From: Vibrio tubiashii
Lineage (GTDB): Bacteria > Pseudomonadota > Gammaproteobacteria > Enterobacterales > Vibrionaceae
DNA: 32,000 bases
Assembly: GCA_000775715.1 (NCBI GenBank)
Contig: JRWQ01000001.1
Span: 510,225 to 542,224, forward strand
Direction: 5' to 3'
Positions 26,212 to 28,715 of this stretch are shown here, in pieces (position 1 is the first letter of the stretch; every line of letters starts with the position of its first letter). A program made the translations under genes and the position numbers. The notes under the pieces were generated by a model. The model was not told the DNA's origin. It did not search any database and was given only the letters and a program-made list of their open reading frames with translations.

Positions 26212-27252
26212 TTATTGGCTGGTTGCTTGCTTCGCTAGTTCAGCCGCTTTTTTCTTAGCACGCTTCGCTGCGTCTTTTTCAGCAAGCTTCTTCAGGCCAG
26301 TTTTGGTGTAAGCCGTGCCTGTTGCATGCGCGATATCGCGAATTACAGACCAGTCTTCTTGGTAAGTGATTGGAGAGAAACGATCCGCGCCTTTAAACGC
26401 TTGGCTCATTTCTGGAGTAAATCGGTAGCTAAAGAAAGCTTCATTAATTTTCTCTACCAACTCTGGTTTAAGGTTGTGTGCATAGCCAAATGCAGAAGTA
26501 GGGAAACGTGGACTGCGATAAATGATCTTAAGCTCAGAATCATCAACACGACCTGCGGCTACCATACGGTCATACACATCAGATGCAACTGGAGCTGCGT
26601 CGTAGTCTCCGTTATATACACCTAAAATAGATTGGTCATGTTTGCCTGAGTAAAGTACTTTATAGTCTTCATCAGGAACGAGACCTTGAGCAGGAAAGAG
26701 TGCACGCGGCGCTAAGTTACCTGAGTTGGATGAAGCAGAAGTATGAGCAACTCGCTTACCTTTAAGATCTGCCATATCGTTGATACCGCTATCTTTACGT
26801 ACAATGGTCACTAGGTTATAGCCTTGGAAGCCCGCTTCATCACCTTTAACCGCAATTGGCACGTAGCCCGCTAAGTTTACGGCATATCCTGTAGGTCCAG
26901 TGGAGAAGCCTGCTACATGCAAACGACCTGAGCGCATTGCTTCAACCTGAGCAGAGTTTGAGTGAACCGTGTAGTAAATGACCTTTTTACCCGTGATCTT
27001 GCTTAGGTGTGCTTGAAAGTCAGCAAAAGCATCTTTATAAAGCGCTGGGTCTTCTACTGGTGTATAAGTAAATACTAGCGTACTTGGGTCTATCCATTCA
27101 CTTGCATCTTTTGGTGCGTCAGCGACCAAGTCTTGGTTTTCATCACAGTATCTTTCATCCAGCACCCCGCGATTTGCACACTCACTTGCCATTACCATCG
27201 ATGGAAGCAGCAAAGAGCCAGCGATTAACAATCCTTTTACACTGTTTTTCAT
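26212..27252 (-). CDS. phnD: Periplasmic phosphonate/phosphite-family substrate-binding protein PhnD, with a Lys/Ala-rich C-terminal tail
   Basis: Has a signal peptide (...PSMVMA|SE). PhnD-family blocks: VFTYTPVEDP, YYTVHSNSAQVEAMRSGRLHVAGFSTGPTGY and HTSASSNSGNLAPR. The tail is KKLAEKDAAKRAKKKAAELAKQATSQ. Confidence 0.85.
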   Translation of the reverse strand: MKNSVKGLLIAGSLLLPSMVMASECANRGVLDERYCDENQDLVADAPKDASEWIDPSTLVFTYTPVEDPALYKDAFADFQAHLSKITGKKVIYYTVHSNSAQVEAMRSGRLHVAGFSTGPTGYAVNLAGYVPIAVKGDEAGFQGYNLVTIVRKDSGINDMADLKGKRVAHTSASSNSGNLAPRALFPAQGLVPDEDYKVLYSGKHDQSILGVYNGDYDAAPVASDVYDRMVAAGRVDDSELKIIYRSPRFPTSAFGYAHNLKPELVEKINEAFFSYRFTPEMSQAFKGADRFSPITYQEDWSVIRDIAHATGTAYTKTGLKKLAEKDAAKRAKKKAAELAKQATSQ

Positions 27253-27298
27253 ATTAGAACCTTACATTCACGTTATTGTTGATGTTCACTCTTCGTAT

Positions 27299-27314
27299 AG
27301 CAGGGGACGTGCCA
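27299..27314 (-). promoter_or_regulatory. sigma54 (-24/-12) promoter of phnD operon: TGGCACGTCCCCTGCT
   Basis: The reverse complement of 27299-27314 gives TGGCACG-N4-CTGCT, against the consensus TGGCACG-N4-TTGCW. The GG and GC are correctly spaced. The -12 element is ~48 nt upstream of the phnD ATG. Confidence 0.7.
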
Positions 27315-27373
27315 ATTATTTTAATTATTATTTTCAATAACTTACTCTACATACCACTCTCTTAGATTTCATT

Positions 27374-27388
27374 TGGGTCATTTCTGTC
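27374..27388. promoter_or_regulatory. Motif copy 1: TGGGTCATTTCTGTC (candidate enhancer/UAS)
   Basis: Part of an 18-nt perfect direct repeat (27371-27388 = 27405-27422). It starts exactly 59 nt beyond the -24 element of the phnD promoter. Confidence 0.55.
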
Positions 27389-27407
27389 TAGCTGATGTGA
27401 TTCTATT

Positions 27408-27422
27408 TGGGTCATTTCTGTC
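27408..27422. promoter_or_regulatory. Motif copy 2: TGGGTCATTTCTGTC (candidate enhancer/UAS)
   Basis: Second copy, 34 bp from copy 1. With its flank it reads TGGGTCA-N4-TGTCCCA, an imperfect dyad. Confidence 0.55.
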
Positions 27423-27439
27423 CCAGTACCTTTGATGCT

Positions 27440-27462
27440 CAAAAAAGGGCTCGAAAGCCCTT
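27440..27462 (-). terminator. Rho-independent terminator after the GDPD gene
   Basis: The minus-strand RNA reads AAGGGCU-UUCG-AGCCCUU followed by UUUUGAG, ~40 nt after the stop at 27504. Confidence 0.8.
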
Positions 27463-27503
27463 ATATTATTTCGAAAAACATACGCGCTGAGACGTTGGTT
27501 CCT

Positions 27504-28715
27504 TTAGATATCCATACAGTTAGCGTAGTAAGTCACGGTAGAAGGCCAATCACTGAACACGCCCAGCACTCCAACATCTTGTGCCAAAACATCAAGTACG
27601 TTCATCATGTCACCATCTTGATTGATCTGTTCAGTCACCGTTTGATAGTACCAACCACCACCTTGCGCAAGCGGCCCTGAACGCTCCAACGTCCAAGCAA
27701 TAATGTCGAGATCAGCTTGTTTTGCCAGCTTGGCGTACTCAGACGCGACAATCGAATTGTTATCATCAAGCTGTATCAACGCATAAAGTGGCGGAGCGAT
27801 GATCTGCACGCCCTGTTTTGATAACGCTTTCATATTTTCTAAGGTTGCTGTGAAACCTTCTAAGTTGTACACGCGATCATCGAGATACACTGCTTGTTTG
27901 CCAAACTCAGGTTCATTGTTGATCCAGTACTTCACATCGTCGAGATTGAATGACTGAACATACGCATCTTTCGCAGAGAACCCTGCTGCTTTCAGCTCAT
28001 CAACCAGTTTCTGAGCGTACATCTCTTGGCTAAAGCCTTGATAAGGCATCTCAACTTTTGCTGACTTAAGCTCTGGAGTGACCTTTACGCCATGCTTTTT
28101 GAATAGTTCAGCACTTTCTGCATGGGTCATTAACGTACCTGTCTGCGAGTACAAATCAGTTCGCCAACCAGGTGTGCCACTCATGTACTCTTCAATAGTG
28201 GTCGCTTTCGGGTTTGCGCCATCCATTTTACCTTTAAGAGTTTTAAACTCCGCCAAAGTAAAATCAGAAGTACGGCACTCAACTTGCGCATCTTCACCCG
28301 TTTCTGGGTTAGCTGGCTTAAATGGTACCGAGCATTTCTTCGCTAGCTCTGGGTGAGCAAGAACATCCGTGGTGGTATGCAAGTCACTTTGTGAATGACG
28401 ACAGACAAGCTGTTTATCTTTAGTAAACGTAACATCGCACTCCAAAACCCCTGCCCCCATTGCAATCGCAGCCAAATAAGACTCCTTAGTATGCTCAGGA
28501 AATTGCATCGCCGCGCCGCGGTGGCCAATTGAAAAGTCACTGCGATAGAATGGGCCATCACTACAGCTTTCAAGCTTAGTTTTGAGCGGACTCTCTTCCA
28601 TATCACTCACGAGATAGATAGGGCGAGGGCCAACCTGCGCCGGTTCATTACCCGCCATGGCTATTGCGCTAACACCTAACAATAGAGCGATACTACTGGT
28701 TAAGATATGCTTCAT
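27504..28715 (-). CDS. Secreted glycerophosphodiester phosphodiesterase-family (GDPD) enzyme
   Basis: Start set to ATG 28715 (SD AAGGAGA), which gives the signal peptide [21 protein letters not shown]|G. GDPD motifs: [38 protein letters not shown] and C-terminal VFSDWP. The track start at 28853 would run through the promoter. Confidence 0.8.

Follow-up and report, generated by a model that had tools for sequence, protein, structure and literature searches.

In Escherichia coli, glpTQ and ugpBAECQ each encode an esterase of the glycerophosphodiester phosphodiesterase (GDPD) family together with a transporter of its glycerol-phosphate product, GlpT being an MFS protein and Ugp a CUT1 system; glpTQ is under the control of GlpR and cAMP-CRP, and ugp is under that of PhoB. 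In Salmonella pgtABCP, whose target is an OPA-family antiporter, a kinase (PgtB) and a sigma-54 activator (PgtA) allow a sensed external organophosphate to turn on its own uptake. A third system, GpxBACD, has been described in Phaeobacter sp. MED193 and Marinobacter sp. DSM11874 (Wang et al., PNAS 2025, PMC12718374). It is an operon of binding protein (SBP), ATPase and two permeases with an adjacent two-component system, and GpxB proteins that are just 50% identical to one another bind both sn-glycerol-1-phosphate (G1P) and glycerol-3-phosphate (G3P) at 1-2.5 uM. The main text and SI of that paper never mention a phosphodiesterase and call regulation an open question; sigma-54 control and a HAD-IIB neighbour are likewise absent from it (PMC12718374). 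Our literature search found GpxB nowhere outside Wang et al., and nothing specific on a combination of GDPD, phosphonate transporter and sigma-54 in Vibrio.

Here we analyse a locus from a marine Vibrio, contained in a 32 kb window (the whole stretch of DNA under study), whose operon has the GpxBACD gene order and an adjacent two-component system, and whose SBP falls in the same clade. Unlike the described GpxBACD loci, it includes a dedicated periplasmic GDPD within the putative regulon. We argue that the locus is quite probably a two-unit regulon for scavenging glycerophosphodiesters, in which the GDPD and a GpxB-type importer are both under sigma-54 control. A sequence-only reading of the same DNA had regarded the pairing of a GDPD with a PhnD-family SBP as unusual, a premise that reflects knowledge predating the December 2025 GpxB paper; once the SBP is identified as GpxB-type, the pairing is no longer unusual.

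Results

The features of the locus, in the order of transcription of the minus-strand genes, are as follows.

30260-32000, minus strand: sensor histidine kinase, clipped by the window edge (the whole gene, L002:485-2473, encodes 662 aa)
28905-30263, minus strand: NtrC-type sigma-54 enhancer-binding response regulator, 452 aa, from profile matches and motifs
28901-28915, minus strand: upstream motif GACACAATTGACCCA, candidate activator site, its first base 74 nt 5' of the first base of the GDPD promoter; kept in relatives
28827-28841, minus strand: sigma-54 type -24/-12 promoter TGGCACGTTGCGTGC of the GDPD gene, from a motif scan; kept in relatives
27504-28715, minus strand: periplasmic GlpQ-like GDPD, 403 aa, predicted signal peptide 1-21, from profiles, residues and AF2 fold
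27440-27462, minus strand: GC-rich hairpin and T-run 42 nt 3' of the GDPD stop codon, likely terminator, from sequence
27374-27422, minus strand: two copies of GACAGAAATGACCCA, at 27408-27422 and 27374-27388, 108 and 74 nt 5' of the first base of the gpxB promoter
27300-27314, minus strand: sigma-54 type -24/-12 promoter TGGCACGTCCCCTGC of the binding-protein gene, from a motif scan; kept in relatives
26212-27252, minus strand: GpxB-type glycerol-phosphate binding protein, PhnD/PhnT family, 346 aa, signal peptide about 1-22, from profiles, PDB match and residues
25324-26109, minus strand: PhnC-type ABC ATPase of the importer (TIGR02315, 318 bits, cut-off 266)
24536-25336, minus strand: PhnE-type permease 1 (TIGR01097, 266.7 bits, cut-off 216.7)
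23733-24536, minus strand: PhnE-type permease 2 (TIGR01097, 271.8 bits)
22534-23352, plus strand: convergent cytoplasmic HAD-IIB hydrolase, 272 aa, motif DVDDT, from profiles and recurrent linkage

The GDPD gene lies directly upstream of the SBP gene, which is followed by phnC-E-E; the coordinates of the secreted 403-aa GDPD (27504-28715) and of the PhnD-family SBP beside it (26212-27252) agree exactly with the span given in the sequence-only reading. The hairpin at 27440-27462 is a likely terminator and would separate the GDPD and gpxB transcription units; the hairpin scan lists this same hairpin on the opposite strand.

We consider first the binding protein, on which the interpretation of the locus turns. 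It matches PF12974 (E 2.9e-62) and passes the TIGR01098 subfamily cut-off, and it does not reach the PhnD equivalog (TIGR03431; 133.9 versus 261.1 bits). In a phmmer search against the PDB its best match is GpxB of Marinobacter sp. DSM11874 (9LF9/9LFB; E 1.3e-83, 284 bits), with PtxB (1e-27), E. coli PhnD (3e-15) and HtxB (1.6e-9) well behind. Identity to GpxB is about 48% over 288 residues, counted by hand from the phmmer alignment, and identity to the homologue from P. pseudonitzschiae, a species whose GpxB has been assayed (PMC12718374), is 54%. The list of GpxB carriers in that paper includes 224 Vibrionaceae (PMC12718374). Judged by these matches, the SBP is a member of the GpxB group of glycerol-phosphate binders, nearer to GpxB than to PhnD, PtxB or HtxB, and its gene is accompanied by those for one PhnC-type ATPase and two PhnE-type permeases, as expected for GpxB.

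The ligand pocket can be compared residue by residue. In GpxB the ligand is contacted by T111, G112, Y138, S168, N169, S170, H199, R223 and T247 (PMC12718374), and the counterparts here are, in order, T118, G119, Y145, S175, N176, S177, H205, R229 and S253, so that eight of the nine contacts are identical and the ninth is a change from Thr to Ser. The seven that hold the phosphate head (T118 to H205) are invariant among seven Vibrionaceae sequences. Of the two contacts to the hydroxyl tail, Arg223 is kept as R229, and the hydroxyl of Thr247 is retained in Ser253; across two Vibrionaceae clades the first eight positions are invariant, while position 253 alternates between Ser and Thr.

These residues bear on two rival explanations. 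According to one of them, the ligand of the SBP is some other small organophosphate or an uncleaved glycerophosphodiester, and the GDPD, just a co-regulated neighbour, serves another branch of the scavenging of phosphorus or lipids. Such a reading could appeal to an identity of only 48-54% to characterised GpxB proteins, to the changed tail contact, whose mutation to alanine in GpxB lowers affinity 10- to 100-fold (PMC12718374), and to features that set the SBPs of this Vibrio clade apart from that of GpxBACD, namely an additional N-terminal segment with a Cys and a C-terminal tail rich in Lys and Ala; moreover, gpxB sometimes occurs without a GDPD. However, GpxB proteins no more alike than 50% have a common specificity (PMC12718374), the Thr/Ser swap is seen among clear GpxB relatives, and all seven phosphate-head contacts and Arg223 are kept. 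Since in GpxB the contacts enclose the ligand's terminal phosphate with seven hydrogen bonds (PMC12718374), there should be little room for a diester. Together with the repeated recruitment of different GDPDs beside gpxB described below, this makes the reading improbable in our estimation.

The other rival, favoured by the sequence-only reading, is that the esterase frees a phosphonate or another head group that is not a glycerol phosphate, for example from phosphonolipid-derived diesters, and that a PhnD-type system imports it. Its attraction is plain: the SBP belongs to the PhnD/PtxB/HtxB superfamily, which includes phosphite and hypophosphite binders; the ATPase and permease families are shared with E. 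coli PhnCDE, PhnC and both PhnE proteins exceeding their respective NCBIfam equivalog cut-offs; and the genome is able to catabolise 2-AEP (phnW, pbfA, phnX). Against this, the SBP stays under the PhnD cut-off, and the comparison with solved PhnD that had been proposed shows that the acidic pair Glu177/Asp205, which binds the amine of 2-AEP, aligns to Arg/Ser, as is typical of GpxB. The GpxB binding panel included methylphosphonate and ethylphosphonate (SI Fig. S2 abbreviations), yet G1P and G3P had the highest affinity among the compounds tested (PMC12718374). The wider genome points in the same direction. The window had been noted to lack ugp, glpT, C-P lyase and phnWX genes, and whole-genome searches bear this out: ugpB...ugpC...ugpQ-like genes lie about 88 kb from the locus on the same contig, phnW-pbfA-phnX lie on another contig with their own PhnS2T2U2 transporter and PhnR regulator, and the searches returned no PhnJ (C-P lyase), in the genome or beside the cluster, and no GlpT above cut-off. 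The phosphonate idea is not supported because the genome lacks a C-P lyase and its 2-AEP genes sit elsewhere with a dedicated transporter; considering also the canonical, G3P-forming GlpQ that occupies the corresponding slot in Zobellella (see below), we regard it as very unlikely. The alternative offered in the same reading, that this PhnD homologue may bind a phosphate ester, is the one that the GpxB match and the ligand residues favour.

The GDPD itself is 403 aa long from an ATG preceded by AGGAG (homologues have 402-406 aa), and its hydrophobic N-terminus, ending in AMA, fits a Sec signal peptide. It matches PF03009 with E 1.2e-23 and 84.9 bits (cut-off 23.6), residues 65-391 covering 242 profile positions. 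The catalytic and metal residues, with roles that we take from GDPD structures such as 2PZ0, are all present as His-Arg, Glu-x-Asp, His and Glu-x-Lys motifs (H65, R66, E92, D94, H107, E215, K217). The best PDB matches of its AF2 model (pLDDT 76) are E. coli GlpQ (1t8q) and NTHi protein D (8cwp), with target-normalised TM-scores of 0.70-0.73 and 23-24% identity. Thus the enzyme shares with GlpQ its fold, its catalytic residues and its periplasmic location, whereas at about 24% identity it falls below the GlpQ equivalog (NF008354; 53.9 bits against a cut-off of 254). The large insertion remarked on earlier is real relative to the Pfam core, but periplasmic GlpQ-type enzymes normally have this insertion domain; what is particular to this subfamily is an N-terminus longer by some 35 residues and, near 345-366, a loop of about 20.

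Is the neighbourhood of GDPD and gpxB more than an accident? The order HK-RR-GDPD-gpxB-C-E-E (HK, kinase; RR, response regulator) occurs in 11 further loci, Moritella among them. In Motiliproteus a GDPD of the same subfamily is placed between gpxB and phnC, in Zobellella the gene between RR and gpxB is a true GlpQ equivalog (575.8 bits, cut-off 254), it and gpxB both being preceded by sigma-54-like sites, and in a Rhodoferax MAG a third GDPD type lies directly 5' of gpxB. Three distinct GDPD lineages, then, adjoin gpxB, and a GDPD does so in 8 of 80 sampled gpxB loci. In a guilt-by-association survey of those 80 loci, the neighbours of note were GDPD, HAD, IclR and the two-component system; Burkholderiales neighbours were housekeeping genes (glmU-like, ribBA, nrdA, parA) or spurious high-GC ORFs.

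One could nevertheless suppose that a common secreted GDPD of Vibrionaceae was inserted by chance between the regulator genes and gpxB and has no functional relation to the importer. Orthologues with 62-80% identity (tblastn) do stand alone in other Vibrionaceae, two annotated cases having hut/thrS and creD genes as neighbours, and in 25 of the 39 Vibrionaceae genomes that carry this GDPD it is not beside gpxB. The cluster can do without the gene, since HK-RR-gpxBACD persists in three close relatives (L011-L013) where the GDPD is truncated or missing, and in one relative an M28 peptidase gene intervenes between it and gpxB. Incidental adjacency would leave unaccounted for both the association of gpxB with GDPDs of other subfamilies, in Zobellella and the Rhodoferax MAG, and the different order in Motiliproteus. 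It is also at odds with the GDPD having its own sigma-54 promoter and motif, spaced as at gpxB and conserved from Vibrio to Moritella, and we give it little credence.

The promoters deserve closer description. Sites of the form TGGCAC-N6-TGC occur only twice in the 32 kb window, 5' of the GDPD gene (28827-28841) and of the SBP gene (27300-27314), both on the coding strand. At both, the motif GACAsAAwTGACCCA begins 74 nt 5' of the first promoter base; this 15-nt upstream motif, GACAnnAATGACCCA, is a candidate site for the activator. Promoter and motif, their first bases 74-76 nt apart, are kept before both genes in all eight GDPD-bearing relatives examined, and the two that lack the GDPD keep them before gpxB. 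The genome has rpoN (509 bits). Co-regulation of the GDPD with phnDCEE, as proposed in the sequence-only reading, is supported by these two sites and their common motif.

Control of both units probably falls to the neighbouring sensor kinase and NtrC-type activator. The activator has the PF00158 domain (215 bits), a receiver Asp55, a Walker A motif at 170 and a Fis-type HTH, with its GAFTGA loop reading GSFTSA at 217. In the kinase, transmembrane segments at 47-65 and 338-356 flank a periplasmic domain of about 270 residues, which matched no Pfam family and is followed by HAMP, HisKA and HATPase domains. PgtB is the kinase's best NCBIfam match, confined to the cytoplasmic part (224 bits over TM2-HAMP-kinase, cut-off 1000), and PgtA is among the matches of the activator (300 bits, cut-off 650). 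The concept appears to be that of pgtABCP, but the periplasmic sensor domain is unrelated in sequence, there is no PgtC homologue here, and the target is an ABC importer plus esterase. Both the gpx transporter of Phaeobacter and the histidine kinase beside it are inducible by G1P or G3P (PMC12718374). The Roseobacter gpxB loci that we examined, on plasmids of Ruegeria sp. TM1040 and P. pseudonitzschiae, have a two-component system of another kind that is not of the sigma-54 type, with a short response regulator and a kinase of about 830 aa rather than the enhancer-binding protein and 662-aa kinase found here, so that the Phaeobacter induction data transfer just loosely.

Discussion

How might such a locus work? 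In the mechanism we propose, the secreted GlpQ-like GDPD would cleave head-group diesters of deacylated phospholipids (GPC, GPE, GPG and similar compounds) in the periplasm to an alcohol and glycerol phosphate. The GpxB-type SBP would capture G3P, and G1P as well, and hand it to the PhnC/PhnE/PhnE-type ABC importer. The two units, GDPD gene and gpxB operon, would be transcribed separately, each from a sigma-54 promoter with the common upstream motif, and the adjacent kinase and NtrC-type activator would switch both on, presumably upon encountering external glycerol phosphate or its diesters. Most likely, the pair of GDPD and SBP is an ordinary system for phospholipid breakdown products that cuts outside and imports the product, and not a phosphonate pathway. 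It would repeat the logic of glpTQ and ugpBAECQ with a different transporter family, PhnT (TC 3.A.1.9), and, as the promoters and neighbouring genes suggest, with control by sigma-54 and a two-component system.

The convergent HAD-IIB hydrolase, single-copy in the genome, occurs close to gpx operons in at least five lineages. Solely from this recurrent linkage comes the suggestion that it may be a partner, perhaps a glycerol-phosphate phosphatase; its best match among solved structures is not close (E 6e-4). Separately, we considered whether Phaeobacter MED193_19469, an uncharacterized protein induced by G1P and G3P, is its orthologue, and found this unsupported; the gpx loci of Ruegeria TM1040 and P. 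pseudonitzschiae have no adjacent HAD.

A more specific possibility is that the module is tuned to G1P: the divergent GDPD would free G1P instead of G3P, GpxB would import it and the HAD-IIB protein would dephosphorylate it to glycerol. We know of no validated sequence rule for the stereospecificity of GDPDs towards G1P or G3P. Archaeal lipids, lipoteichoic acid and the phosphatidylglycerol head group are possible sources of the diesters, and the glycerol from the HAD step, free of the chirality problem, may enter GlpK/GlpD. We think this proposal unlikely as a whole; the phosphatase step, taken by itself, is a tentative idea about which we are doubtful. If the G1P proposal were true, it would fill the extracellular and cytoplasmic gaps in bacterial G1P recycling.

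More generally, the two-unit regulon for glycerophosphodiesters adds to points that the GpxB paper left open: an upstream enzyme that, by its sequence, could turn products of phospholipid breakdown into the ligand, a concrete candidate circuit (kinase, sigma-54 activator, two promoters and a 15-nt upstream motif) and a candidate cytoplasmic phosphatase. The Phaeobacter genome with GpxBACD also has Ugp, as does this one, and in this marine Vibrio the locus would give access to lipid-derived phosphorus and carbon by a third route, Ugp and the 2-AEP genes being the other two. The importer described here, and thousands like it, are annotated as "phosphonate/phosphite transporter PhnDCE", a label that invites wrong inferences on phosphonate cycling; independently of the biochemistry that led to the reassignment in 2025, the genomic context of this locus likewise points to glycerol phosphate.

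Results

The sequence-only reading had drawn attention to a GDPD-family phosphodiesterase (GDPD) paired with a PhnD-family binding protein (SBP), and our gene calls and domain matches confirm that pairing.

Genes of the cluster (window positions, strand, product)
30260 to window end, minus: sensor kinase (662 aa at full length in the genome, L002:485-2473)
28905-30263, minus: NtrC-type response regulator
27504-28715, minus: GDPD-family phosphodiesterase
26212-27252, minus: PhnD-family binding protein
25324-26109, minus: PhnC ATPase
24536-25336, minus: PhnE permease 1
23733-24536, minus: PhnE permease 2
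22534-23352, plus: HAD-IIB hydrolase, converging on the operon end

The GDPD starts at the ATG at 28715, with AGGAG 8 nt upstream; its homologues are 402-406 aa long, and the correct reading is 403 aa. A longer GTG start would fall upstream of the GDPD promoter. Both the GDPD and the SBP have a hydrophobic N-terminal stretch running up to an Ala-x-Ala-type site. The coordinates and gene descriptions first assigned are therefore correct.

What does the importer bind? The SBP scores above the broad phosphate/phosphite/phosphonate SBP subfamily model and below the PhnD equivalog cut-off (133.9 vs 261.1 bits). In the PDB it is by far most similar to 9LF9/9LFB (E 1.3e-83); PtxB follows at 1e-27 and E. 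coli PhnD at 3e-15. 9LF9 is GpxB of Marinobacter sp. DSM11874, a PhnT-family binding protein published in December 2025 that, of the compounds assayed, bound sn-glycerol-1- and sn-glycerol-3-phosphate best (G1P and G3P; Kd 1-2.5 uM) (PMC12718374). A Phaeobacter orthologue, 50% identical to the Marinobacter protein, has the same specificity, three Sulfitobacter proteins bind G1P and G3P with low micromolar affinity, and the GpxB carriers in that census include 224 Vibrionaceae (PMC12718374).

The nine ligand contacts of GpxB (T111, G112, Y138, S168, N169, S170, H199, R223 and T247; PMC12718374) align, in the PDB-search alignment, to SBP T118, G119, Y145, S175, N176, S177, H205, R229 and S253, with one conservative change. 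Both GpxB-like Vibrionaceae clades have the first eight without exception, and Ser or Thr as the ninth. In GpxB, R223 and T247 replace PhnD Glu177 and Asp205, the pair holding the amino group of 2-aminoethylphosphonate (2-AEP) (PMC12718374). Comparison of the pockets speaks against a PhnD-like site, the SBP having the GpxB-type Arg and Ser at these positions. Judged by sequence, then, the SBP is a predicted GpxB-type glycerol-phosphate binding protein, which places the importer in the GpxB kind; this match and these residues favour what the sequence-only reading had offered as its alternative, a PhnD homologue with a phosphate ester as ligand.

The SBP also has a Lys/Ala-rich C-terminal tail (window 26212-26295, residues about 320-346), beyond the region aligning to crystallised GpxB, and an N-terminal extension with a conserved Cys pair, C25 and C36. 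The second Vibrionaceae clade (L019-L022, from genomes G147, G024, G123 and G129) shows about 50% identity to the SBP with every ligand residue retained, and comes with an ATPase and two permease genes of its own but without kinase, activator, GDPD or HAD; G123 and G149 carry both clades. Several Burkholderiales loci (L053, L057, L060, L062, L072, L086, L090 and L099) hold 2-3 tandem GpxB-like SBP genes before one ATPase/permease set.

The main proposal made earlier, that the esterase releases a phosphonate or other non-G3P group for import, finds no support: the SBP is of the GpxB type, the genome has no PhnJ, and 2-AEP has a separate transporter. The SBP is the only PF12974 protein in the genome. 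The complete 2-AEP cluster, with that transporter, lies on another contig (G000:C44:7615-16516, L108:615-9516) and comprises phnR, phnU2, phnT2 and phnS2 with divergent phnW, pbfA and phnX, pbfA scoring above the cut-off of the (R)-1-hydroxy-2-AEP ammonia-lyase model. GlpK is encoded in the genome, where no GlpT scores above cut-off. Because ugpB...ugpC...ugpQ-like genes lie about 88 kb from the GpxB-type importer, this Vibrio is predicted to have a Ugp as well as a Gpx route for glycerol phosphate, as Phaeobacter has.

The GDPD belongs to PF03009 and retains H65-R66, E92-x-D94, H107 and E215-x-K217, which we take to be the catalytic or metal-binding motifs of the family. The nearest structures to its AF2 model (pLDDT 76, pTM 0.79) are those of E. 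coli GlpQ and Haemophilus protein D, with target-normalised TM-scores of 0.70-0.73 and about 24% identity. Thus the large insertion remarked on earlier is present but is the usual GlpQ-type domain; the extras of this subfamily are an N-terminal extension and one loop. By profile model the GDPD is not a GlpQ equivalog, and its database relatives, the closest of which (95% identity) carries a V. tubiashii label, are called only 'glycerophosphodiester phosphodiesterase (family protein)'.

How tightly are esterase and importer linked? Among 151 Vibrionaceae genomes, 19 have the close GpxB clade. An intact GDPD stands directly beside gpxB, the SBP gene, in 12 of the 19, a truncated remnant does so in one, and in one fragmented assembly the two genes are on separate contigs; the other five have no adjacent GDPD (one without a GDPD match, three with it elsewhere in the genome, one with a frameshifted copy elsewhere). 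The order kinase, regulator, GDPD, gpxB, ATPase and two permeases recurs in L005-L010 and L025-L029, a Moritella MAG among them, and L011-L013 retain kinase, regulator and gpxBACD (SBP, ATPase and permeases) with the GDPD missing. The GDPD is not obligatory in the cluster. Stand-alone orthologues in other Vibrionaceae (62-80% identity, tblastn) adjoin hut/thrS and creD genes at the two loci annotated.

Across many phyla, 8 of 80 gpxB loci have an adjacent GDPD. In Motiliproteus a member of the window's GDPD subfamily lies between gpxB and phnC. The gene immediately upstream of gpxB in a Rhodoferax MAG encodes another kind of GDPD, and in Zobellella iuensis the place between activator gene and gpxB is taken by a true GlpQ equivalog, which scores 575.8 bits against a cut-off of 254. 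Since non-orthologous GDPDs share this position, their placement argues for a functional tie in which the esterase would make the importer's substrate.

In the close relative G028, a 371-aa M28-family peptidase gene lies on the opposite strand between GDPD and gpxB (L005:9530-10645), and both sigma-54 promoters and upstream motifs survive despite this insertion. GDPD remnants of the last 100-115 residues occur beside an intact gpxB cluster (L011:9604-9906, G074) and in a genome without any gpxB (G143:C11:118168-118509); the esterase gene seems to have decayed independently.

The GDPD stop codon is followed by a hairpin with a T-run, so GDPD and gpxB probably form two transcription units. The sigma-54-type promoter pattern TGGCAC-N6-TGC has just two sites in the 32 kb window (0.28 expected by chance), both on the coding strand directly upstream of GDPD and gpxB. 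Moreover, all three window copies of the 15-nt motif GACAsAAwTGACCCA (0.01 expected) are at these promoters: each promoter has one that starts 74 nt ahead of its first base, and gpxB has an extra one 34 nt farther upstream. Promoters and motif, at 74-76 nt, are kept before both genes in all eight GDPD-keeping relatives compared (one with a truncated GDPD) and before gpxB in two relatives without GDPD, within otherwise variable intergenic sequence; Moritella and Zobellella likewise keep them. The regulator encoded upstream combines a sigma-54 interaction domain with the receiver Asp and a Fis-type HTH, its GAFTGA loop reading GSFTSA, and rpoN is found in the genome. With these promoters, motif and spacing, the co-regulation suggested at the outset is well supported at the sequence level, the adjacent two-component system being the predicted regulator. 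In Veronia nyctiphanis (L049), several ORF fragments upstream of gpxB are apparently what the kinase and activator genes have been split into; they may be pseudogenes or assembly errors.

The HAD-IIB gene is single-copy in the genome and the reciprocal best match of HAD genes beside gpx operons elsewhere. Its subfamily lies less than 5 kb from the gpxB operon in 16 of 80 loci, in Vibrio, Arcobacter, Sneathiella, Achromobacter/Bordetella and Burkholderiales MAGs. In Arcobacter it follows the second permease immediately, on the same strand and in the same operon; in Achromobacter/Bordetella the order is HAD-IclR-gpxB. Other copies lie at L035:9648-10415, L042:4952-5869 and L068 about 8015-8940; every copy tested matches the window's HAD gene alone in the V. 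tubiashii genome. From synteny alone, the hydrolase may be a cytoplasmic glycerol-phosphate phosphatase.

Discussion

The window's GDPD and importer follow the same overall logic as glpTQ and ugpBAECQ. In Phaeobacter, expression of the transporter and adjoining kinase rises in response to G1P or G3P (PMC12718374); the two-component system of Roseobacter gpx loci is, however, of a different type than the window's. The text and SI of the GpxB paper make no mention of a phosphodiesterase, and regulation is stated there as still to be studied (PMC12718374). New relative to that paper are the dedicated periplasmic GDPD, the predicted sigma-54 circuit with its motif and the gpx-linked HAD-IIB hydrolase. 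The GDPD-gpx locus makes sense as a variant of an established scavenging design, undescribed in such detail.
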